Made by a program: the position numbers and the translations under genes. A stretch of 64,000 bases of DNA. Source: Bacteroidetes bacterium OLB10. Lineage in GTDB: Bacteria > Bacteroidota > Bacteroidia > AKYH767-A > OLB10. Below the pieces are notes generated by a model. The model searched no databases. It was not told the DNA's origin and saw only the letters and a program-made list of their open reading frames with translations. The stretch's first letter is position 1, and each line of letters begins with the position of its first letter. The DNA lies in assembly GCA_001567275.1 (NCBI GenBank), contig LNBX01000040.1, forward strand, positions 7,169 through 71,168, given 5' to 3'. Below, piece after piece: positions 4,088-54,463 of this stretch.

Positions 4088-4417
4088 TTATTTTATCAGA
4101 TTTACCTCTTTACCGAATTCGCGTGCAAACGATTTCATTTTGTCTGCATGTTCTTTATTGTTGGTTGCATTCATATAGGTGTCGGCCATACTCATATACA
4201 TTTCAAAAAAGAACTGTTGCATTTCCTCCACCAGCATTTCTTTTGTCCATAAATCAATACGCATGGTGGTTTGGTCTTTTTTGTCAAACAAAGCAAGCAT
4301 CACGGCTTTACATTCTTTTTCACCTTCCATTCCGCTGTCATCTGCTCTCCAGTGCAACTGCTCGGGAAGATTATTGTCATCTAATGATACAATGAATTTT
4401 ATTTCTGATTTTTTCAT
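4088..4417 (-). CDS. gldC: Gliding motility protein GldC-like
   Basis: 109-aa cytoplasmic protein. Sequence (…RIDLWTKEM…EMQQFFFEMYMSMADTY…) matches my recollection of the GldC family. gldB lies nearby. Confidence 0.5.
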   Translation of the reverse strand: MKKSEIKFIVSLDDNNLPEQLHWRADDSGMEGEKECKAVMLALFDKKDQTTMRIDLWTKEMLVEEMQQFFFEMYMSMADTYMNATNNKEHADKMKSFAREFGKEVNLIK

Positions 4418-4676: not shown

Positions 4677-6029
4677 ATGGACTTAAACTTCCTAACGAAA
4701 GAAAGCCAGTATTATGGCGTGTACCTGTTTGTAGCCATTGTATTGTTTCAAATGGTATTTATATTTATACAATGGCTGATTTACAAGCGGGTAGATTATC
4801 TGTTCTACATTGGATATATGATTTCCATTGTGCTGTATGCTTTTAGTTTGTATAAACACTTGTTTATTCAAGAATTTCCTGAAGGATATAGCGCTGCCAT
4901 AGAAACTTTCTTAAAACAATCTTTGCCTTTGATTTCCATTACATTATACTCCGGTTTCCAACGTCATTTTCTCGAGCTAAAAACAAGTTCTCCCTTGCTT
5001 AACACCCGTGTTAAGTGGATTGAAAGATTTCTGATTGCATTCTGTTGTTTTCTGCCGGTGTTACTATTTTTTGAGGTAGAAAGAATTTATATGCTGCAGA
5101 TTTTTATTGTAGTTTGTTGCATAGTAATTGCAGCTTTGGTGCTAATCATACGAAGAGTTTTAAAAGCTTGTCTGCCGTTTCAGCGGTTTGCTATTGCCGG
5201 TGCATTATTTATAATTGTAGGTTCAATTCCTACCATTATACTGGGTTTTTATGAAGACAGAGGTTATGAAGTAGCCGTTAACCCTCACCTTCCGCTGATG
5301 ATTTGCGTTATTCTTGAATTGCTCACATTTACTACAGGACTAACTTTAAAATCGTACTATATCGAGAAAGAAAAAAGAGTACTCGAGAAAGCTATAGCAA
5401 TTCAGAATAACAATCAAAAACAAACGGAAATAGAGTATTTGAAAATGCGCAACAATGTTTCACGTAAGTTACATGACAGTTTAGGGGCTGAACTTTCTAT
5501 TGCAAAAATGATGCTTAGCACATTGCCAAAAGAAAAAGCTGAGACGAATAAAAAGACGCTTTCTGATTCTATAAAATTGATAGGTAATTCTATTGAAAAG
5601 GTGTATGACCTGATGAGTGATGTAAATAAAATTACACCTGAAGAGATTAATGTCATCTCATCAATTCAAACATTAATACAGAACCTTGAACCATTAAATA
5701 ATATTAAATGGAATTTTGATTATAAATTGGAAGAGGAATGTTTGTCTTTTGTTAAGCGCCAGCACGTACTTCTTATTATTAAAGAACTGATTAATAACAC
5801 TCTCAAATATGCCTCAGCTACAACTATCAGCATTAGCATAAGACATGAATTTAAGACCGTTAACATTTTTTATCATGACAATGGCTCTGGTACCGACCTT
5901 GATAAATTGTCGAAAGGGAATGGTTTAAAAAATATTAAAGAAAGAGTAACTGAAATGGATGGACAAATGCATGTTTACTCAACTCCCAATGATGGGTTCA
6001 CTGTTCAGATAAATATTTCAGAAACATGA
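4677..6029 (+). CDS. Sensor histidine kinase (7TM receptor-type N-terminus + HisKA_3 + HATPase_c), NarL-class partner
   Basis: About seven predicted TM helices. H-box NVSRKLHDSLGAELS typical of HisKA_3. G-boxes HDNGSGTD and GNGLKNIKERV. Confidence 0.8.
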   Translation: MDLNFLTKESQYYGVYLFVAIVLFQMVFIFIQWLIYKRVDYLFYIGYMISIVLYAFSLYKHLFIQEFPEGYSAAIETFLKQSLPLISITLYSGFQRHFLELKTSSPLLNTRVKWIERFLIAFCCFLPVLLFFEVERIYMLQIFIVVCCIVIAALVLIIRRVLKACLPFQRFAIAGALFIIVGSIPTIILGFYEDRGYEVAVNPHLPLMICVILELLTFTTGLTLKSYYIEKEKRVLEKAIAIQNNNQKQTEIEYLKMRNNVSRKLHDSLGAELSIAKMMLSTLPKEKAETNKKTLSDSIKLIGNSIEKVYDLMSDVNKITPEEINVISSIQTLIQNLEPLNNIKWNFDYKLEEECLSFVKRQHVLLIIKELINNTLKYASATTISISIRHEFKTVNIFYHDNGSGTDLDKLSKGNGLKNIKERVTEMDGQMHVYSTPNDGFTVQINISET

Positions 6030-6053: not shown

Positions 6054-6681
6054 ATGAAAAAATTGAAAACAGTAATTGCAGATGATCATGCCATGTTTGG
6101 TATGGGTATGGCTGAAATAATTGGGCAGGTTTTACCCGTAGAAGTGGTTGCAATAGCAGACAATGGTAAAAAAGCAATTGAACAAACACTTAGCCATAAA
6201 GCTGAACTGGTGATTATGGATATTGATATGCCTGTTGTTTCAGGAATATATGCTTGTAATGAAATTAAAAGGGTTTCACCCGACACATTGGTGTTTTTTG
6301 TAACTATGATTACACAAATAGAAACCGTGCTGTCAGCACTGAAAGCAGGAGCAGATGCCTATGTGTTAAAGGGAAACAGCCTGGAAGATTTGGCTGAAGC
6401 ATTTGATTATTCAGTGAAGAAAAAAACGTCCTTTCGTAAGTCAGCAATTGCGTCATCTGGTGAGTATAGATAAAAAAGACTTTCAGGATAAACTGATTAC
6501 AGACAGAGAAAAAAATATTCTGAAAATGATTTGTGAAGGAATGACTAATGACGAAATTGCAAACGTGATTAATATTTCAGTTCGCACAGTGGATACACAC
6601 CGCCAAAATATGCTCAACAAGTTAAAGCTACCCAACACTGCAGCACTCGTAAGGTTTGCAATTGAGAATAAGCTGATTTAA
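6054..6681 (+). pseudogene. NarL/FixJ-family response regulator (REC + LuxR HTH) interrupted by a frameshift in an A7 run (~6421-6427)
   Basis: ORF 6054..6473 encodes a receiver domain (DDH…VIMDIDMP…K). ORF 6448..6681 in the +1 frame encodes the LuxR-type HTH (LTDREKNILKMICEGMTNDEIANVINISVRTVDTHRQNM). Reading back in the HTH frame hits a stop at 6415, so the join must lie in 6418-6450, where gaagaaaaaaacg sits. Confidence 0.75.
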
Positions 6682-6738
6682 ATGGTGATTGAACCATAGC
6701 CCAAAATTTAATTCTTAATTTTTTTCTGCTAATTAAAG

Positions 6739-6758
6739 TTACGTGTTTTTACGTATTG
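6739..6758 (+). promoter_or_regulatory. 20-mer ttacgtGtttttacgtattg, copy 1 (direct TACGT-N5/6-ACGTA repeat)
   Basis: Seen directly; 18/20 identical to a second copy at 7019-7038. Lies ~50 bp upstream of the orphan LuxR gene. Confidence 0.3.
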
Positions 6759-6810
6759 CAAACCGCTATATCATATTGTTCTTTTGCTTCACGCAATAAG
6801 TCAGAAGGAT

Positions 6811-7005
6811 ATGACACCTATAACCCCACGAGAAAAACAAGTGCTTGTTTTATTAAGCAAAGGCTATACAGACAAAACCATTGCCGAAAAACTGGAGATG
6901 AGCCCCAATACAGCACGTACACACCGGCAAAAGCTACGAGCAAAGTTTCATGTCAGCAACACTGCTCTGCTCATTAAAATGGCAATTAAAAAAGGATTTA
7001 TTTAA
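6811..7005 (+). CDS. Stand-alone LuxR-family HTH protein (~65 aa, no receiver domain)
   Basis: MTPITPREKQVLVLLSKGYTDKTIAEKLEMSPNTARTHRQKLRAKFHV is a canonical LuxR/GerE HTH. ATG at 6811 preferred over the track start at 6784. Confidence 0.7.
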   Translation: MTPITPREKQVLVLLSKGYTDKTIAEKLEMSPNTARTHRQKLRAKFHVSNTALLIKMAIKKGFI

Positions 7006-7018
7006 TAATGGCAGAAAA

Positions 7019-7038
7019 TTACGTCTTTTCACGTATTG
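7019..7038 (+). promoter_or_regulatory. 20-mer ttacgtCttttCacgtattg, copy 2
   Basis: Seen directly, 14 bp after the orphan LuxR stop. Same orientation as copy 1. Confidence 0.3.
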
Positions 7039-7151
7039 ATAAAGAATTAAATATTGAAGTGATTTGCTGTCATTATTAATAATAACAACTGCAAACTACA
7101 TCAGATGAAATACACATTTGTGTTATAAAATATTCTCAAACTAATCCTATT

Positions 7152-7182
7152 GGGCATTGGCAACAGCCAATGCCTTTTTTAT
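7152..7182 (+). terminator. Rho-independent terminator (ggcattggc-aaca-gccaatgcc + T-run)
   Basis: Perfect 9-bp stem, 4-nt loop, followed by ttttttattt. Plus-strand orientation only, downstream of the orphan LuxR gene. Confidence 0.6.
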
Positions 7183-7277
7183 TTAATTCGTTTTTGTGAA
7201 TAATAAAGCAGGCAGGTTACTGAATTAACATTAGCTATTAAACATGATTGTATTTCCCTCGTTTACAAAAATTCCAT

Positions 7278-8321
7278 TCAGGGTTTAAATCCTGATTTTT
7301 CAAGGATTTTTTGTGCATCGTTTTCTTCGAGTAGTTGCGGCAGAGTAGTTTTATTATTTTTCATATACGAACGTACAATTTGCCATCCCAGCCATTGAGC
7401 TGTTTTGGCAGGAGCACCTTCGGGGAAACCCTGAGTGGTATTGCCATCGCCTACATATTTCATATATTCCATTTCATCGGTTGCATAGAGCAGTTTCTTT
7501 TCAATATAAAATGCCCACATCTGCTTGCTGTTGTTGTTGCACCACTCCAATTGTTTTGCAGTATAACCTATTTTAACGGAGTCCTGCATGTCAGGGGCCA
7601 TCATATCTGCAAAATACAATTGCTTGCCATAATAAATCATCTGACTCAGCAACTCTTTTTTTACATGGTCAATATCATGTTCGCTCTGATACCATCCTTT
7701 GATTACATCATTCACTATATATTCTTTTGAAAATCTGCGATAGGCATATTCAGGAATTCCTATGGAGGGATAAAATTCGCAATCGCTGCCCAGATACATA
7801 TCCAACCCAACACCAATCAAACTGTCGGTAGTGATAATACTGTAATTGAAAGCCGAAATAAAAGTGACAATTTCTTTAGCAGGTTGTTTGTTGAAGTAAT
7901 GTTTGTAATGTTTCAGAAAGTCATCAATGCCTGAAAATATTTTTTGAGTTACTACAGGGGTAAATATTTTTTGAGTTCGGTTATGAATGTCCTGCACATC
8001 CTTGTCGTGAATAAACGCATTGAGGTTGGAAGCGAGCTTTGCAGAGTCTGTTGGCGGGAGGTGAATAATACGGTTGACATACAAATCGAAAAACTCAGGA
8101 TAGGACGAACGATATTTTATTATTTGTTCGGGTGTGATGGAGTCAGCATCTGCATACAACAATGAGTCAAAGCGTATGTGTGTGGTGCTTACGGTTTCGT
8201 TTTCAGAAAAAGTGTCCCGATGTGTACATGCTGCAATTACTATGAAAAGAATGGCAAGCAGGCTTACTTTACGATATTCAGATCTCAATTTTATTATTAG
8301 TTTTGCCGATATTAAAAACAC
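7278..8321 (-). CDS. gldB: Gliding motility lipoprotein GldB-like
   Basis: 347 aa. Lipoprotein signal …LLAILFIVIAAC. Overall similarity to the GldB family from memory. Start is uncertain: GTG at 8321 or TTG at ~8288. Confidence 0.5.
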   Translation of the reverse strand: MFLISAKLIIKLRSEYRKVSLLAILFIVIAACTHRDTFSENETVSTTHIRFDSLLYADADSITPEQIIKYRSSYPEFFDLYVNRIIHLPPTDSAKLASNLNAFIHDKDVQDIHNRTQKIFTPVVTQKIFSGIDDFLKHYKHYFNKQPAKEIVTFISAFNYSIITTDSLIGVGLDMYLGSDCEFYPSIGIPEYAYRRFSKEYIVNDVIKGWYQSEHDIDHVKKELLSQMIYYGKQLYFADMMAPDMQDSVKIGYTAKQLEWCNNNSKQMWAFYIEKKLLYATDEMEYMKYVGDGNTTQGFPEGAPAKTAQWLGWQIVRSYMKNNKTTLPQLLEENDAQKILEKSGFKP

Positions 8322-8327
8322 TAAATA

Positions 8328-8918
8328 ATGAGAGCAAAAGTATCACTAATTGCATTAGCCTTTGTGGCAGTAGCCCAAACCCTGAATGCTCAGGACACAA
8401 AATTCAATTTTGGACTGAAAGTTTCGCCAACCATAGCATGGTTTAAAGCCAGTGGCAATTTAGACAATGATGGCAGCAAAATTGGTTTTGCCTATGGATT
8501 GATGGCAGATTTTAATTTTTCAGATAATTATGCCTTATGCACGGGAGTGGATGTAACCTATCGCGGAGGTAAAGTAAAAGCGTACGATACCTACAAATTA
8601 AAAACCGTTTTGCAGTATATTGAAGTTCCAGTTACTTTAAAATTAAAAACTAACGAAATTGGTTATGTCACTTATTTCGGTAAAGTAGGATTTGCACCGG
8701 GTTTCAACATCAGAACGGATGGTGACTTTAATAAGTCAGACATCTATCCTTTCAACTTAGCGCTGGTAGTTGGTTTGGGAATGCAGTATTCACTTGGTGG
8801 CAAAACAGCTTTGTTGGCAGGGGTAACTTTCAACAACGGATTTTTGGATGTGGTAAAAGAGAAGGAGATGAAAGCTACATCTAACTTTATAGCAATTGAT
8901 CTTGGAGTGATGTTTTAA
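8328..8918 (+). CDS. Outer-membrane beta-barrel protein (OMP_b-brl_2/PorT-like small porin)
   Basis: Signal peptide MRAKVSLIALAFVAVAQTLNAQ. Alternating amphipathic beta-strand pattern. C-terminal …GVMF. Confidence 0.55.
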   Translation: MRAKVSLIALAFVAVAQTLNAQDTKFNFGLKVSPTIAWFKASGNLDNDGSKIGFAYGLMADFNFSDNYALCTGVDVTYRGGKVKAYDTYKLKTVLQYIEVPVTLKLKTNEIGYVTYFGKVGFAPGFNIRTDGDFNKSDIYPFNLALVVGLGMQYSLGGKTALLAGVTFNNGFLDVVKEKEMKATSNFIAIDLGVMF

Positions 8919-8935
8919 TAAGAATCATCCAAATA

Positions 8936-8970
8936 AAAAAAGGCTGTCTCGAAAAGAGGCAGCCTTTTTT
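8936..8970. terminator. Bidirectional Rho-independent terminator between convergent genes
   Basis: aaaaaaaggctgtctc-gaaaa-gaggcagcctttttt: GC stem flanked by an A-run and a T-run. Confidence 0.7.
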
Positions 8971-8985
8971 GTGCTGTAAACTCAA

Positions 8986-11760
8986 TTAATTTTTCTTCAG
9001 ATAATCTCTCAGCACATATTGAAGGATTCCCTGATTTCTGTAGTATTCAATTTCAATAGCTGAATCTAACCGTGCTTCCACTTTGAAGTTGGTTTCTTTA
9101 CCTGATGAATGAACCGCTTTTACATCCAGAATTTTATGTGGCTTCAAATCTTTTTCAAGACCGGTGATGGCATAAGTCTCTGTTCCGTCAAGACCGAGTG
9201 ATGCAGCATTTTGACCATTGGTAAATACCAAAGGAGCAACACCCATCCCTACCAGATTGCTTCTGTGAATGCGCTCATAACTTTCAGCAATTACCGCTTT
9301 CACGCCCAGCAGGAATGTTCCTTTGGCAGCCCAGTCGCGTGATGAGCCGGAGCCATATTCTTTTCCTGCAAGAATAATAAGCGGAGTTTTGTCTTTCTGA
9401 TATTGCATGGCTACATCATAAACAGTTTTCACTTCGCCTGTTGGCAGATAGCGACTGAAGCCTCCTTCTTTATCTGAAATTTTATTTTTGATACGCACAT
9501 TGGCAAACGTTCCGCGCATCATCACTTCATGATTTCCTCTGCGCGAACCATAAGAGTTGAATTCTTCTTTGGCTATGCCTTTGCTGCTGAGATAAGCTCC
9601 TGCTGCTGATGTTTCTTTAAATGAACCTGCAGGTGAAATATGATCGGTAGTTACCGAATCTCCTAAGTAAAGCAATACTCTTGCATTAGTAATATCAGTA
9701 ATTGCATCCGGTGTGGCTTTCAGATTTTCGAAGAAAGGTGCCTCACGTATGTAGGTTGAGTTCTGATCCCACTCAAAATTCTGATCGAGTTTTACTTCCA
9801 ATGTTTGCCAGTCGGTTGAACCATCAAAAATAACATCATAAACTTCTTTAAAGTCATCCTGCTTCAAACATTCATTGATGGTATTCTGAATGTCTTCGCG
9901 TGATGGCCAAATGTCTTTCAGATAAACAGGTTCACCATTGGGGTCAAAGTCAATGGGGTCGTTTATTAAATCTATATCTACTCTTCCTGCAAGTGCATAC
10001 GCCACAACCAGCATTGGCGACATGAGGAAGTTCATTTTTACCTGCGGATGCACACGTGCTTCAAAGTTTCTGTTTCCTGATAACACAGAAGCTACCACCA
10101 GTTCGCCTTTGTCAACAGCTGTTGCAATGGCAGGAGGTAATGGTCCTGAATTTCCGATACACGATGTGCAACCATAACCAACGGTATGAAAACGCAAAGC
10201 ATCCAGATCAACATTCAGTCCTGAACGCTCTAAATATTTTGTAACCACTTTAGAACCCGGAGCCAGTGAAGTTTTTACCCAAACTTTTGTTCTCAGCCCT
10301 TTTTCAACAGCATTACGGGCAAGCAATCCTGCGCCTACCATCACAGCAGGGTTTGAAGTATTTGTACAACTGGTAATAGCTGCTATCACAATGCTTCCGT
10401 CACTTACCACAAATTCTTTATGCGGCTGTTTGATTCTTACAGAGTGATGCATCTTGTCCACTTCTACTTCCGATTTTGTTTCGCCATGAAGAGGAACTTT
10501 GCCAAATGTAAATTCAGTACCTGAACCACCTTCCTTCAGCCATGCTGATTCAAGCCGATCTTGCTGAGGCTGATATTCCCGGTTGAATTCACCTTTCAGA
10601 ACTTCGCAGAATTTGTTTCCAAGGTCTTTTACAAAAATTTTATCCTGCGGACGTTTTGGTCCCGATACAGTTGGTTCCAGTGTTGACAAATCCAGTTCAA
10701 CAACGGTTGAATAATTTATTTTTTCGTTTCCTGTTCTCCAGAGGAGATTGTCCTTGCAATATGTTTCTACTATTTTTATCTGCTCTTCTGAGCGGTTGGT
10801 AGAGCGCATATATTCCAGAGTGCGGTCATCAATCGGGAAATAAGTTACTGTACAACCAAATTCAGGCGACATATTACCAATGGTAGCGCGGTCGGTAACA
10901 GTTAAGTTCTGAAGTCCGTCACCAAACACTTCTACAAATTTTCCTACTACTCCTGTTTTGCGAAGCAGATTTGCTATTGCTAAAACAAGGTCGGTGGCTG
11001 TACACTGATTAGGGATTTTTCCTGTAAGTTTCAGTCCTACCACCTGAGGGCATGTAAAGAAAATCGGTTGACCTAACATGGCAGCTTCAGCTTCAATACC
11101 ACCCACACCCCATGCAATTACTCCAATACCGTTTACCATAGGCGTGTGTGAGTCCGTTCCTACCAGTGTGTCAGGAAACAACCATCCGTCTCTGGCAATA
11201 ACTCCTTTAGATAAGTATTCAAGATTCACCTGGTGGCAGATGCCCATTCCGGGAGGTACTACCGTGAAATTTTTCAATCCTTTCTGTGCCCACTTCAGCA
11301 ATTCATAACGTTCTTTGTTGCGGTGAAATTCCAGTTCAACATTTTTGTCGTATGAGTAATCGGTTCCGTAATAATCCACCTGCACAGAGTGGTCAATAAC
11401 CAGGTCAACAGGTATGGCAGGATTTATTTTCTGGCCATCTTTGCCATGGCGAACATATTCTGCACGCAGCGAAGCCATATCCACCACAGCGGGTACTCCC
11501 GTAAAGTCCTGCATCAGAATACGTGCAGGCATGAATGGAATTTCTTTATCTATTTCAGCAGGAGTCCAGTTAAGCAAAGTTTCTACATGCTCATCTGTAA
11601 TGCTGAAACCATCATAGTTGCGCAAAATATTTTCGAGTAAGATGCGTATGCTGAATGGCAAATGTTCTACATTCACTTTCAAATCTTTCAGCGAACTGTA
11701 TTTGTATTTTTTCCCGTTAACTGAAATCTCTTTTACTGCCTGTGCTTTAGAGTAACTCAT
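8986..11760 (-). CDS. acnA: Aconitate hydratase A
   Basis: 924 aa. Aconitase Fe-S cluster cysteine-containing segments …SCTNTSNP… and …YGCTSCIGNSGPL…. Length typical of AcnA. Confidence 0.95.
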   Translation of the reverse strand: MSYSKAQAVKEISVNGKKYKYSSLKDLKVNVEHLPFSIRILLENILRNYDGFSITDEHVETLLNWTPAEIDKEIPFMPARILMQDFTGVPAVVDMASLRAEYVRHGKDGQKINPAIPVDLVIDHSVQVDYYGTDYSYDKNVELEFHRNKERYELLKWAQKGLKNFTVVPPGMGICHQVNLEYLSKGVIARDGWLFPDTLVGTDSHTPMVNGIGVIAWGVGGIEAEAAMLGQPIFFTCPQVVGLKLTGKIPNQCTATDLVLAIANLLRKTGVVGKFVEVFGDGLQNLTVTDRATIGNMSPEFGCTVTYFPIDDRTLEYMRSTNRSEEQIKIVETYCKDNLLWRTGNEKINYSTVVELDLSTLEPTVSGPKRPQDKIFVKDLGNKFCEVLKGEFNREYQPQQDRLESAWLKEGGSGTEFTFGKVPLHGETKSEVEVDKMHHSVRIKQPHKEFVVSDGSIVIAAITSCTNTSNPAVMVGAGLLARNAVEKGLRTKVWVKTSLAPGSKVVTKYLERSGLNVDLDALRFHTVGYGCTSCIGNSGPLPPAIATAVDKGELVVASVLSGNRNFEARVHPQVKMNFLMSPMLVVAYALAGRVDIDLINDPIDFDPNGEPVYLKDIWPSREDIQNTINECLKQDDFKEVYDVIFDGSTDWQTLEVKLDQNFEWDQNSTYIREAPFFENLKATPDAITDITNARVLLYLGDSVTTDHISPAGSFKETSAAGAYLSSKGIAKEEFNSYGSRRGNHEVMMRGTFANVRIKNKISDKEGGFSRYLPTGEVKTVYDVAMQYQKDKTPLIILAGKEYGSGSSRDWAAKGTFLLGVKAVIAESYERIHRSNLVGMGVAPLVFTNGQNAASLGLDGTETYAITGLEKDLKPHKILDVKAVHSSGKETNFKVEARLDSAIEIEYYRNQGILQYVLRDYLKKN

Positions 11761-48318: not shown

Positions 48319-49683
48319 TTATAGTTTTAAAAATTTCAGATTGATAATTTCCGATTCTGAAATTACAGCCAGGTGATAAACTCCATTGCTAAGTCCTGTA
48401 AGTTGCAGCTGATAACGAGTGTTGTCTGTATGTATTTTTCTGATGGTTTTTCCGGTAATATCTGAAAGAATCATTTCAACATTGCCAACAGGATGGTTGC
48501 TCACGAGAGTTATCACATCAGTTGCAGGATTAGGATAAATCTGCCAGCCGGAAGCTGACAGTGCACTCACACTGCTGATGATAACACTGTGACAGGAAGA
48601 AGTATCGCTACAGCCATTGGCACCAATTACAACTGCGTAAGTGCCATTAGCGGTGGGTGTAAAACTCTGACTGATGGCTCCCGGTACCGGAGTGTTGTTC
48701 AGGCAGTTTATCCACTGATAAGTTGCTCCGTTTTGATTAGCAGTCAGTGTATTTTGGTTTTGTGTAACTGAGGTATCATTCTGTGTAAGAATTATTTTTA
48801 TGGTTGAATCGCAGTTTACTGAAGAAGTATAGGTGAAGGTATAGGTGCCCGGCTGACTTATAAGCTGACCGTTGTAAGGATAGGATTGCCCTACACATAG
48901 ATATGCAGTAATCACGGTGCTGTTGTCAATTCCGTCAACGAAATTGGAGCTAGTACCTGTCAGATTAAATCCGGACAGAACTCCATTGACGTTGAGTTTT
49001 TTATCCGGAACAACTCCAATGCCTGTGTTGTTTCCTCCGGCTACACCGGTATTCATGTCGTAATACATCTGCAATCCGTTTGAATTGATGTCAATTTTGT
49101 TTTTATACAAACACATCACTTCTTCCGCAGTGAGACTTCTGTTCCAAAGCCCTACTTCGTCCACCTTGCCATCAAGGTAGTAGTTGGTTCCCTGATACAA
49201 CAGATTACCTACCAAAAACGACTGAGTTGAAGTGTTGATGGTGCCTGATGCAGGAACTGAGTCGGTAATTACACCATTACGATACACACGCAGATAAGAG
49301 CCATCATACGTCATGGCATAATGTTGCCAGGTGTTTAACTGCATTCCATTCGAAATAATATTGTACTGAATACCTGAACTATTGGTAAACCGTGCCTCTA
49401 TGGATGAAGAGGTGTATTGCAACAAATAAAAATCGGCAAACAGATTATCACGGAATCCTATTATTCCATCAAAATCAGGAAATGTTGGTGCGGGATTTCG
49501 GGGATACACCCAGCAGGCAATACTCATCTGCGGTGAACCTGTGATTAAGGATGAAGCGTTAAATGCCTCCACCTGATCATCAATGCCATCAAAATCAAGA
49601 GCATTTTCAGTTTGTGCCTGTGCAATTACAGACAGTAGTATAGCAACAAGAGTTACCATTGAATAACGTATAAACTGTTTCAT
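48319..49683 (-). CDS. Secreted LamG/concanavalin-like domain protein with T9SS C-terminal sorting domain
   Basis: Signal peptide MKQFIRYSMVTLVAILLSVIAQAQ. Jelly-roll/LamG-like region (…FDGIDDQVE…SIACWVYP…). C-terminal …WQIYPNPATDVITL…ILSDITGKTI…GVYHLAV… is a T9SS CTD. Confidence 0.65.
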   Translation of the reverse strand: MKQFIRYSMVTLVAILLSVIAQAQTENALDFDGIDDQVEAFNASSLITGSPQMSIACWVYPRNPAPTFPDFDGIIGFRDNLFADFYLLQYTSSSIEARFTNSSGIQYNIISNGMQLNTWQHYAMTYDGSYLRVYRNGVITDSVPASGTINTSTQSFLVGNLLYQGTNYYLDGKVDEVGLWNRSLTAEEVMCLYKNKIDINSNGLQMYYDMNTGVAGGNNTGIGVVPDKKLNVNGVLSGFNLTGTSSNFVDGIDNSTVITAYLCVGQSYPYNGQLISQPGTYTFTYTSSVNCDSTIKIILTQNDTSVTQNQNTLTANQNGATYQWINCLNNTPVPGAISQSFTPTANGTYAVVIGANGCSDTSSCHSVIISSVSALSASGWQIYPNPATDVITLVSNHPVGNVEMILSDITGKTIRKIHTDNTRYQLQLTGLSNGVYHLAVISESEIINLKFLKL

Positions 49684-52417: not shown

Positions 52418-54463
52418 ATGCTAAAAAATTTATGTGCAGCAGTATTGCTGCTGATTGCTACAGGCGCACACAGTCAAAATAAACTTACTCCCGAAACACT
52501 CTGGAAACTGGGTCGCGTTGGCGAAGCAGCATTATCACCTGATGGGAAAACAGTAGTTTATACTGTGCGTACTTTTGATTTACATTCTAACAAAGGCAAT
52601 ACGGATATTTATAAAATTCCTGTTACGGGAGGGCAACCTACTTTACTTGCAGGAGAATCAGCTGATGAAACTGCACCACAATGGAGTGCTGACGGAAAGA
52701 AAATTTATTTTCTGAGTAACAAAGGAGGAGTGAATGGACTTTACGTAATGGATGCTTCAGGTTCAGGTATGAAACGACTGACCAATTACGGTGATGATAT
52801 TTCTTGTTTTGGAATATCGCCTGCCGGAAACAGAATCTGGCTTACTCGTGATGTTAAAATTGATAAGAACGCTCACGATTTATACCCTGATTTACCTCTG
52901 GCAACAGGGCGTATTTACGATGACCTCATGTATCGCCACTGGACACAATGGGAAGATGGATTGTACTCACATGTTTTTGTTGGAAGTTTTGTAAATGATG
53001 AAGTAGGTAACCTAACCGACATACAAGCCGGTGAACATTTTGATACACCTATGCAACCACATGGAGGTAGCGAACAAATAGCATGGAGTGCTGATGGAAA
53101 AAAACTGGCTTACACCTGCAAAAAACTTTCAGGAAAGGAATATGCGGTAAGTACCAATTCGGACATTTACCTGTATGATTTTGAAACAGGAAAAACTGAA
53201 AACATATCAGCAAGTAATTTGGGTTATGATATAAATCCTGCATTTTCATCTGATGGCAACAGTATGATGTGGCTCAGTATGAAAACACCGGGCTACGAAG
53301 CTGACCGTAACAGAATTCTTATTTATCATCTGGATTCAAAAAAAATTATTGAAGCCACTGCCGGATTTGATTATAGTGTGGAAAGTGCAAAGTGGGCGGC
53401 TGATGGCAAACGTATTTATTTTATTTCAGGAATTAATGCTACTGAACAGTTGTGGGTGTATGACGGCCGTTTACGCAGTTATCCGCCTGTAATGCAACTC
53501 ACACATGATGTGGCTGACTATACAGATTTTTCATTCGCTGCAGATCCTAAAATTACCTACGCTATCACTACAAGAATGTCTATTTCATCACCTTCGGAAT
53601 TATATAAAACAGATTTAAAAACCGGTGTGTCAACTCCGCTTACTGCAACCAACGAAGCAGTACTTAAAAACATCAAAATGGGAAAAGTAGAAAAACGAAT
53701 GGTGAAAGCGACTGATGGAAAAGAAATTCTTACCTGGGTAATTTATCCTCCCGATTTTGATGCATCCAAAAAATATCCTGCACTGCTTTACTGTCAGGGA
53801 GGCCCACAGAGCACGGTATCACAATTTTTCAGCTACCGTTGGAATTTTCAACTGATGGCAGCTAATGGTTATATCATTGTTGCACCCAACAGAAGAGGAT
53901 TACCTTCTTTCGGAACAGAATGGAACCATGAGATTTCAGGTGACTGGGGAGGACAGTGCATGAGAGATTATCTTTCAGCTATTGACTCAATGAGCAACCT
54001 TCCTTTTGTTAACAAAGATAAACTTGGAGCAGTGGGCGCCAGCTTTGGTGGCTACAGTGTTTACTGGCTTGCAGGGCATCATCAAAAACGCTTTAAAACA
54101 TTTATAGCCCATTGTGGTGTATTTAATCTCGAGAGTATGTATGGTACTACCGAAGAGTTGTGGTTTACGGATTATGATTTGGGAGGACCATACTGGCAGA
54201 CTCCAAAACCAAAATCTTACACACAGTTCTCGCCAAATGATTATGTAAAAAACTGGGATACTCCCATACTCATCATTCAGAATGAAAAAGATTTCAGAGT
54301 GCCACTGGGTCAGGGAATGGAAGCATTCACTGCAGCGCGCTATCAGAATATTCCTGCCAAATTTCTTACTTATCCTGATGAGGGGCATTGGGTTACTAAA
54401 CCACAAAACAGTGTATTGTGGCAACGAATATTTTTTGACTGGCTCGATCGTTATCTGAAGTAA
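52418..54463 (+). CDS. S9-family serine peptidase (prolyl oligopeptidase/DPP-like) with N-terminal beta-propeller
   Basis: Signal peptide. TolB-like propeller repeats. Nucleophile elbow GASFGGY. C-terminal Asp/His (…DEGHW…). Confidence 0.85.
   Translation: MLKNLCAAVLLLIATGAHSQNKLTPETLWKLGRVGEAALSPDGKTVVYTVRTFDLHSNKGNTDIYKIPVTGGQPTLLAGESADETAPQWSADGKKIYFLSNKGGVNGLYVMDASGSGMKRLTNYGDDISCFGISPAGNRIWLTRDVKIDKNAHDLYPDLPLATGRIYDDLMYRHWTQWEDGLYSHVFVGSFVNDEVGNLTDIQAGEHFDTPMQPHGGSEQIAWSADGKKLAYTCKKLSGKEYAVSTNSDIYLYDFETGKTENISASNLGYDINPAFSSDGNSMMWLSMKTPGYEADRNRILIYHLDSKKIIEATAGFDYSVESAKWAADGKRIYFISGINATEQLWVYDGRLRSYPPVMQLTHDVADYTDFSFAADPKITYAITTRMSISSPSELYKTDLKTGVSTPLTATNEAVLKNIKMGKVEKRMVKATDGKEILTWVIYPPDFDASKKYPALLYCQGGPQSTVSQFFSYRWNFQLMAANGYIIVAPNRRGLPSFGTEWNHEISGDWGGQCMRDYLSAIDSMSNLPFVNKDKLGAVGASFGGYSVYWLAGHHQKRFKTFIAHCGVFNLESMYGTTEELWFTDYDLGGPYWQTPKPKSYTQFSPNDYVKNWDTPILIIQNEKDFRVPLGQGMEAFTAARYQNIPAKFLTYPDEGHWVTKPQNSVLWQRIFFDWLDRYLK

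Follow-up and report, generated by a model that had tools for sequence, protein, structure and literature searches.

Two predicted operator-promoter units of NarL-type geometry flank the small GerE-type gene of a conserved two-component module in Bacteroidetes bacterium OLB10

In the RcsB system, a NarL/FixJ-type response regulator is joined by auxiliary LuxR-type partners (RcsA, BglJ and GadE) that have no phospho-acceptor domain, and rcsA itself is preceded by the shared RcsAB box. GerE of Bacillus subtilis, a stand-alone LuxR-type protein of 74 aa, consists of the four-helix GerE helix-turn-helix (HTH) domain only and is a DNA-binding dimer. The heptamer consensus of NarL is TACYYMT. The output domains of NarL bind as dimers to sites made of two 7-bp half-sites with a 2-bp gap (7-2-7 sites), and the isolated output domain binds constitutively, independent of phosphorylation; NarL activates from positions -40 to -49 at napF and from -38 to -47 at yeaR, and an engineered site reads TACCCCT-AA-AGGGGTA (PMC4549865). 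In the flavobacterial sigma-A promoter, the -7 box TAnnTTTG occupies positions -12 to -5 (PMC9723704). Here, we analyzed a stretch of 64,000 nucleotides from Bacteroidetes bacterium OLB10 (contig LNBX01000040.1, positions 7,169 to 71,168 of the forward strand; this whole stretch is called the window), in which two closely similar 20-mers flank the gene of a 64-aa HTH-only protein located behind a sensor kinase and a NarL-type regulator, between gldC and gldB (Table 1). By comparison with related loci, which are designated by L numbers, we consider it likely that the two 20-mers are operator and promoter units, and that they serve as cis-targets of the GerE-type proteins encoded in the adjacent module.

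The 20-mers, named copy 1 and copy 2, had been reported in a preliminary description of this DNA as 18/20 identical and placed in the same orientation, and both statements held in the sequence; when a repeat finder was used, the match extended to 21/24 positions from 6735 and 7015. The claim that such a recurrence is improbable by chance was also borne out, as a search of the 64 kb with the 18 common bases, allowing up to three mismatches, retrieved copies 1 and 2 only, against a shuffle expectation of 0.12, and two or more matches to this pattern were obtained in 2/100 shuffles. The pattern TACG-N8-CGTA was observed three times in the 64 kb versus 0.21 expected, and this count was reached in 0/100 shuffles; the third site, at 53294, contains neither the T-tract nor ATTG and was treated as a chance match. 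The small gene has its ATG 52 nt past the end of copy 1, and copy 2 starts 14 nt after its stop codon. The 20-mers are also surrounded by AT-rich inverted repeats, at 6702-6719/7039-7056 (16/18) and 7002-7025/7056-7079 (83% complementary). These are weaker in the sister lineage L011, were not seen in the other lineages, and probably reflect chance in AT-rich DNA.

Each 20-mer holds a 16-bp inverted repeat, TACGT-N6-ACGTA, which is equal to TAC-N10-GTA and divides into two 7-bp half-sites with a 2-bp gap, TACGTGT-TT-TTACGTA in copy 1 and TACGTCT-TT-TCACGTA in copy 2. The half-sites had been taken for a direct repeat; they are in fact inverted, and they only appear direct because ACGT is self-complementary, making the inverted repeat the better reading. 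This arrangement shares with the 7-2-7 sites of Escherichia coli NarL/NarP the inverted 7-bp half-sites, the 2-bp gap and the outer TAC/GTA, but differs from them in the CGT core in place of YYM, in the central T-tract, and in the predicted fusion to a -33/-7 instead of a -35/-10 promoter, and the cognate kinase here is of the 7TMR-DISM type. The NarL heptamer is matched at 6/7 positions by TACGTCT and at 4-5/7 by the other half-sites, with G instead of Y at position 4 throughout. The sequence thus agrees with NarL in geometry, and the putative operator would have a different specificity instead of being a NarL site proper.

In both copies, the palindrome adjoins TTG, and an 8-mer ending in TTTG is located exactly 20 nt beyond this TTG, a layout that we infer to be a Bacteroidota sigma-A-type -33/-7 promoter; scanning for sigma-70-type promoters is not informative in this phylum. 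Since the -7 box covers -12 to -5 in the flavobacterial promoter, transcription starts are predicted at ~6791 and ~7071. On these predicted starts, TTG falls at -35 to -33 and the palindrome at ~-51 to -36, with its center at ~-43.5, which by analogy would be where NarL/LuxR-type dimers bind to activate. With transcription from 6791, the start codon of the small gene is the ATG at 6811 rather than the TTG at 6784; this ATG is found 24 nt past the -7 box and ~20 nt past the predicted start. The spacing of 20 nt between TTG and the 8-mer was kept in every module copy tabulated, with TTTG in 16/19 and TTTA in 3/19, and the open reading frame (ORF) began 9-49 nt past the -7 box in the module copies, with the exception of one at 109 nt. 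The TTG and TTTG 20 nt apart, within the ~19-21 nt of such promoters, and the ORF starts ~20-30 nt beyond the -7 box are features of the Bacteroidota sigma-A promoters (-33 TTTG/-7 TAnnTTTG), with the difference that the -33 element reads ATTG here.

The small gene had been regarded as an orphan, but it turned out to be the conserved third gene of a kinase/regulator/HTH module. Homologs of the kinase, with 39-45% identity, were found in the same gene order in six other lineages and in unrelated neighborhoods, the shared order being kinase, NarL-type regulator, operator, 64-aa GerE gene, operator, and a co-directional gene for a secreted protein or lipoprotein. The table of module copies covers 19 copies from 7 lineages, that of the window included, and the loci L158/183/076, L095/180 and L167 came from the metagenome scan described below. 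One copy lies 37-60 nt ahead of the small-gene ATG in L052, L054/56, L058/59, L158/183/076, L095/180 and L167, and a second one is found in these lineages between the small gene and the next gene; the spacing between the two copies ranges from 273 to 357 nt. The check proposed earlier, whether related loci carry the small luxR gene together with both motifs, was therefore positive in the six other lineages. Moreover, the 20-mer of copy 2 is identical in the window, L011, L054-L057 and L058/59, and 24/24 positions agree between the window and L058, where the non-coding DNA round this copy cannot be aligned with that of the window. In L011, copy 1 is 23/24 identical despite diverged flanks and copy 2 is 24/24 identical; the identity between the window and L011 is 0.87-1.00 in the operators and promoters, versus 0.62 in the 5' untranslated region, 0.44 between the stop codon and copy 2, and 0.67 in the spacer to gldB. 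The 20-mers are thus kept while the proteins are only 39-59% identical and the surroundings are unalignable, which argues for selection on the sequence itself. This conservation, often base for base in modules with kinases of 39-45% identity, lends support to the earlier proposal of an operator pair for LuxR-type proteins.

All 7 lineages with an RTVDTHR-type regulator and the canonical operator also carry the small HTH. In L060, with a kinase 32% identical and a regulator-only module, a related site, TTAAGTGTTTTTACGGATTG, is found ahead of a type IX secretion system (T9SS) cargo gene, and in L061/62, where the recognition helix of the regulator is different (ETVKKH), no such site was detected. 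The genes past copy 2 in the other lineages all have signal-peptide or lipoprotein-like N-termini, and include those for a collagen-like lipoprotein of 174-205 aa, a thiol-cytolysin-like protein and a GDSL-lipase-like protein. In L054, copies are present at 7114, 7466 and 9525, the third of them ahead of the second downstream gene. The direct repeat round the small HTH gene of L052 (7030-7130 and 7380-7486) reaches ~100 nt upstream of the 20-mer, and the same was observed in L054. Taken together, the extended repeats and the third copy suggest that the whole promoter unit may have been duplicated upon recruitment of new genes.

The 64-aa protein matched the Pfam family GerE (PF00196) with 52.1 bits, the cutoff being 23.5, over residues 4-58 of 64 and profile positions 3-57 of 57, and its sequence matches in PDB were the C-terminal domains of SsrB, FixJ, EsrB and NarL. 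A word-index protein search with this protein returned its own 90% cluster only, and the relatives were reached through the kinase homologs instead. The small HTH shares 39% identity with the HTH of the regulator in the same module and 50-59% with its counterparts in L052, L054 and L058, indicating that it is an old conserved paralog, and these values ruled out a recent tandem duplication of the regulator HTH with a 3' motif. Between the window and L011, 9/195 bases of the gene differ, and the proteins are 98% identical, with one conservative K-to-R change. The recognition helix reads RTVDTHR in the regulator and NTxRTHRQ in the small HTHs (NTARTHRQ in the window). Like GerE of B. subtilis, the protein is composed of the GerE domain only; GerE, however, acts in a sigma-factor cascade, whereas the small HTH belongs to a two-component module, and the recognition sequence of GerE is unrelated to the operator found here. 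As in RcsB/RcsA, a regulator with REC and GerE domains is linked to a GerE protein with no REC domain; this module differs in that the auxiliary is only a 64-aa HTH, encoded right after the regulator and flanked by two operators, and a heterodimer is hypothetical.

A metagenome scan with the pattern TACG-N3-TTT-N2-CGTATTG-N24-TTTG gave at least 120 loci, and the figures that follow are among the matches listed. An ORF start (ATG) was found within 60 nt in 71 of the 103 unique matches with downstream room (69%), at a distance of 4-58 nt and mostly of 20-30, whereas control TTG-N24-TTTG sites of the same loci had an ORF start within 60 nt in 25%. The N-terminus looked like a signal peptide in 45/71 downstream ORFs versus 16/57 in the control. 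A GerE-type gene was directly adjacent on the same strand, i.e., ending at most ~200 nt upstream (mostly <100) or starting at most 70 nt downstream, in 17/120 loci, versus ~0.5 expected at the background density of such ORFs, 0.05-0.06 per kb. At the positions left free by the pattern, the matches leaned to TACGTCA-TT-TGACGTA, a perfect 7-2-7 palindrome. The downstream genes included those for DUF6252 lipoproteins, PQQ-like propellers and Por_Secre_tail proteins, and regulator genes, and the regulator genes of L078, L089, L096 and L117 carried the site in their own promoter. It had been said that a common dispersed repeat would speak against an operator; the motif did not behave as one and travels with regulator genes. 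The 19-mer had 10 chance matches in viral contigs, none of them with a TTTG box at the fixed distance or in a promoter-like context, and no match to the relaxed motif was found in 550 kb of Bacteroidota GldB loci.

Two groups of sites stood apart among the matches listed. Thirteen near-identical sites, TACGTGTTTTTGCGTATTG, with a conserved spacer, were found in L075, L077, L091, L092, L107, L130, L136-L138, L141, L146, L152 and L178; in 9/13, the start of a lipoprotein-like gene (MRKTFLMVAAVAAML..C) is located 130-170 nt downstream, a much longer leader than at other sites, and the remaining ones either had an ORF beginning closer by, at 88 nt, or were followed by too short a sequence. The palindrome variant TACGnCATTTGnCGTATTG recurs upstream of lipoproteins of ~170-180 aa (Pfam DUF6252, N-terminus ..SCS.DDDGG...AKVDG) in L105, L116, L127, L164 (two copies), L179, L187 and others, and may represent a separate regulon of a related regulator with the recognition helix TVRKH.

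The conservation, the geometry and the genetic linkage to the module can be read directly from the loci. Several observations weigh against the operator-promoter reading. Binding, activation, the transcription starts and the identity of the binder are all deduced from sequence comparison. Within the 64 kb, no further operator sites were found, which leaves a regulon in this genome hypothetical, and none was found upstream of the kinase-regulator operon itself. No ORF of at least 20 aa starts on the + strand past the predicted copy-2 start in the window, leaving this copy with no gene to drive. The canonical TA of TAnnTTTG is missing in TTCTTTTG, GTGATTTG and nearly all module copies, which, together with ATTG at -33, is consistent with a weak promoter whose activity would depend on an activator. 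The helices of the regulator and of the small HTH differ, and other motif-linked regulators carry TVRKH or TVETH. Finally, ~85% of the motif loci listed have no adjacent GerE gene, many of these contigs being short.

The small HTH gene is most likely transcribed from copy 1, and this control is the natural reading because the -33/-7 layout puts the start ~20 nt before the ATG. Copy 2 would be, in other lineages, the promoter of the next gene, always one for a secreted protein or lipoprotein, and in the window it would now give just a transcript of ~115 nt halting at the terminator. We propose that the regulator, once phosphorylated, binds to the two operators and switches on the small HTH together with the target. 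As a phosphorylation-independent output domain, the small HTH would then fill these operators too, either by itself or in a heterodimer formed with the regulator, and its occupancy would either lock the promoters on or damp them. The binder could be the phosphorylated regulator, the mini-HTH, or an RcsB/RcsA-like heterodimer. Co-variation of helix and operator was indecisive as a guide to the binder, as the key helix position may be R, D or E in regulators linked to TACG sites. A bolder extension, to which we give a poor chance, is that the trio with its portable operator-promoter unit constitutes an undescribed and widespread Bacteroidota architecture, in which the unit is copied before recruited genes, whose products would be secreted proteins, lipoproteins and T9SS cargo. 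On this view, the mini-HTH would serve these operators as a phosphorylation-independent latch or brake, and the unit in the lineage of the window, its protein target lost, would now make a regulator-controlled small RNA by gldB.

The history of the region past copy 2 bears on these proposals. A 7-codon ORF at 7106-7129 starts 39 nt past the -7 box, compared with 47-49 nt for the start codon of the target in other lineages, and all 3 substitutions relative to L011 change the amino acid. In a tblastn search of the window with the target proteins of other lineages, no homolog was found, save weak C-terminal sorting-domain matches near 48.4-48.6 kb. These matches, at 48346-48615 on the - strand and to the T9SS cargo proteins of L011 and L060 (25-31% over ~80 aa), probably come from an unrelated gene for a T9SS substrate, in the part that encodes its C-terminal sorting domain. 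The terminator is 33/34 identical in L011, and its loop (7162-7165) reads AACA or the reverse complement TGTT among same-species assemblies, a hairpin-loop inversion polymorphism. The target gene appears to be gone from the lineage of the window and from the sister L011, and gene loss would be the simplest history because the same promoter drives a protein gene in six other lineages.

Copy 2 might alternatively be no relic but an active, regulator-controlled promoter, either for a small RNA of ~115 nt or, with read-through of the terminator, for an antisense transcript into gldB that couples the system to gliding/T9SS genes. In favor of this, the identity between the window and L011 is 0.87-1.00 in copy 2, in the associated -7 box and in the terminator, and 0.83 over the transcript body, against 0.44-0.67 in the neighboring spacers; the segment 7005-7150 shows no variation across the window and 10 further assemblies of the species, the peptide of the 7-codon ORF has not been conserved, which is compatible with an RNA function, and the module sits between gldC and gldB. 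However, an Rfam search of 6600-7300 at a permissive E-value gave sub-threshold noise only and no family match, and RNA folds of the copy-2 transcript from the window and L011 showed the terminator as the only stable and conserved structure, from two lineages, which are too few for covariation. Gene loss is simpler, given the protein gene behind the same promoter elsewhere, and the strong terminator argues against read-through, making an active role for copy 2 unlikely in our view. The related suggestion of the preliminary description, that the motif controls the gldB side, found no support either: copy 2 faces the 3' end of the convergent gldB and is followed by the strong terminator, in other lineages it precedes a co-directional secreted-protein gene, and no gld genes were present downstream of 48 related sites.

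It is improbable that the palindrome belongs to an unlinked global regulator, e.g., a Crp/Fnr-type dimer, with the adjacent LuxR-type proteins not binding it. The 5-6-5 layout at ~-43.5 does resemble class II CRP-type sites, the downstream genes are functionally heterogeneous, and the motif loci with no adjacent GerE gene would be expected for such a regulator; yet the site flanks the small HTH gene in 7/7 module lineages and directly follows a regulator gene in many others, GerE adjacency is far above its expectation, several regulator genes carry the site in their own promoter, it is absent where the recognition helix differs, and TAC-N10-GTA equals the NarL 7-2-7 geometry. Lower still do we rate the chance that the 20-mers have no function and were left behind by a tandem duplication, or that they mark the borders of a small cassette, mobile or inserted, with the HTH gene, the latter having also been raised in the preliminary description. 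Direct repeats bracket one small gene, are ~100 nt long in L052/L054, and have the 16/18 inverted repeat just outside, and the whole module is inserted between gldB and gldC relative to L012/L013. Such ends would not, however, be conserved across lineages with such diverged proteins and surroundings, and their spacing to one another varies; the outer inverted repeat decays in L011, and no recombinase, integrase or transposase was seen among the Pfam-annotated neighbors. The operator-promoter unit precedes every regulated gene, with the third copy of L054 before another one, and its fixed spacing to the -7 box and the ORF start fits a promoter and not a recombination site. Collectively, the operators of the adjacent GerE-type proteins remain the likely identity of the 20-mers.

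Pfam confirmed the gene content previously given for the locus, namely the HisKA_3 kinase, the split NarL-type regulator, gldC, gldB and the LuxR-HTH gene. The regulator is indeed split in the window, but the frameshift is restricted to this assembly and consists of one extra A in the run 6421-6427, which is A7 in the window and A6 in L001, L002, L004 and L011. Gene calls gave an intact regulator of 208 aa in 9/10 same-species contigs (L001, L003-L010), and an ORF of 208 aa that contains both domains, REC and GerE, is present in L011; the extra A probably reflects an error in the assembly or variation at the strain level. Two relatives were reached through GldB, L012 (77% identical) and L013 (59%). 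In L012 (6968-8371) and L013 (1177-2603), the two nearest lineages lacking the module, gldB lies next to gldC in the same direction and no two-component genes intervene, and therefore the module is an insertion in the lineage of the window, on the strand opposite to gldB/gldC. Between the regulator and copy 1, the sister L011 (94%) has an extra 547-aa T9SS cargo gene (8720-10363, - strand), which codes for a repeat protein with a C-terminal sorting domain; no operator was found in its promoter, and it has its own canonical TATATTTG promoter and its own terminator.

Table 1. Features of the module, the two repeat copies and the flanking gld genes in the window.
Feature	Coordinates	Strand	Remarks
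gldC	4088-4417	-	Pfam
Sensor histidine kinase (7TMR-DISM_7TM + HisKA_3 + HATPase_c), first module gene	4677-6029	+	Pfam; homologs of 39-45% identity head the same module elsewhere
NarL-type response regulator (REC + GerE HTH), split	6054-6681	+	Pfam; REC ORF 6054-6473, GerE ORF 6448-6681
Copy 1 of the repeat	6735-6758	+	20-mer TTACGTGTTTTTACGTATTG, 6739-6758; palindrome TACGTGTTTTTACGTA, 6740-6755; TTG 6756-6758, predicted -33 element
Predicted -7 box TTCTTTTG (copy 1)	6779-6786	+	20 nt past TTG; predicted transcription start ~6791
HTH-only GerE/LuxR-type protein, 64 aa, third module gene	6811-7005	+	Pfam GerE
Copy 2 of the repeat	7015-7038	+	20-mer TTACGTCTTTTCACGTATTG, 7019-7038; palindrome TACGTCTTTTCACGTA, 7020-7035; TTG 7036-7038, predicted -33 element
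Predicted -7 box GTGATTTG (copy 2)	7059-7066	+	20 nt past TTG; predicted start ~7071; kept in L011
Predicted short transcript from the copy-2 promoter	7071-7185	+	~115 nt, no real ORF; relic of the 5' end of a lost gene or small RNA
Intrinsic terminator	7152-7185	+	Hairpin 7152-7175, then T-run; 10-bp stem with 6 GC pairs, 4-nt loop; ends the module
gldB	7278-8321	-	Pfam; convergent with the module

To our knowledge, DNA motifs for NarL/LuxR-type response regulators have hardly been described in Bacteroidota, and a search of open-access papers for the motif strings and for NarL/LuxR-type regulators of this phylum found no description of the motif or the module. For this genome, the meaning is modest: the pair would be ordinary regulatory DNA of a two-component module inserted in this lineage, with a second copy that lost its gene. 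For the phylum, the comparison gives a precise and testable operator, (A/T)TACGTCTTTTCACGTATTG, or alternatively the 7-2-7 palindrome TACGnnn-TT-nnnCGTA, its exact predicted position in the unusual -33/-7 promoter, and a conserved three-gene module whose predicted targets are secreted proteins, lipoproteins and T9SS cargo. A simple regulatory circuit would thus become directly testable, and the unit may offer a compact inducible promoter part for Bacteroidota genetics.

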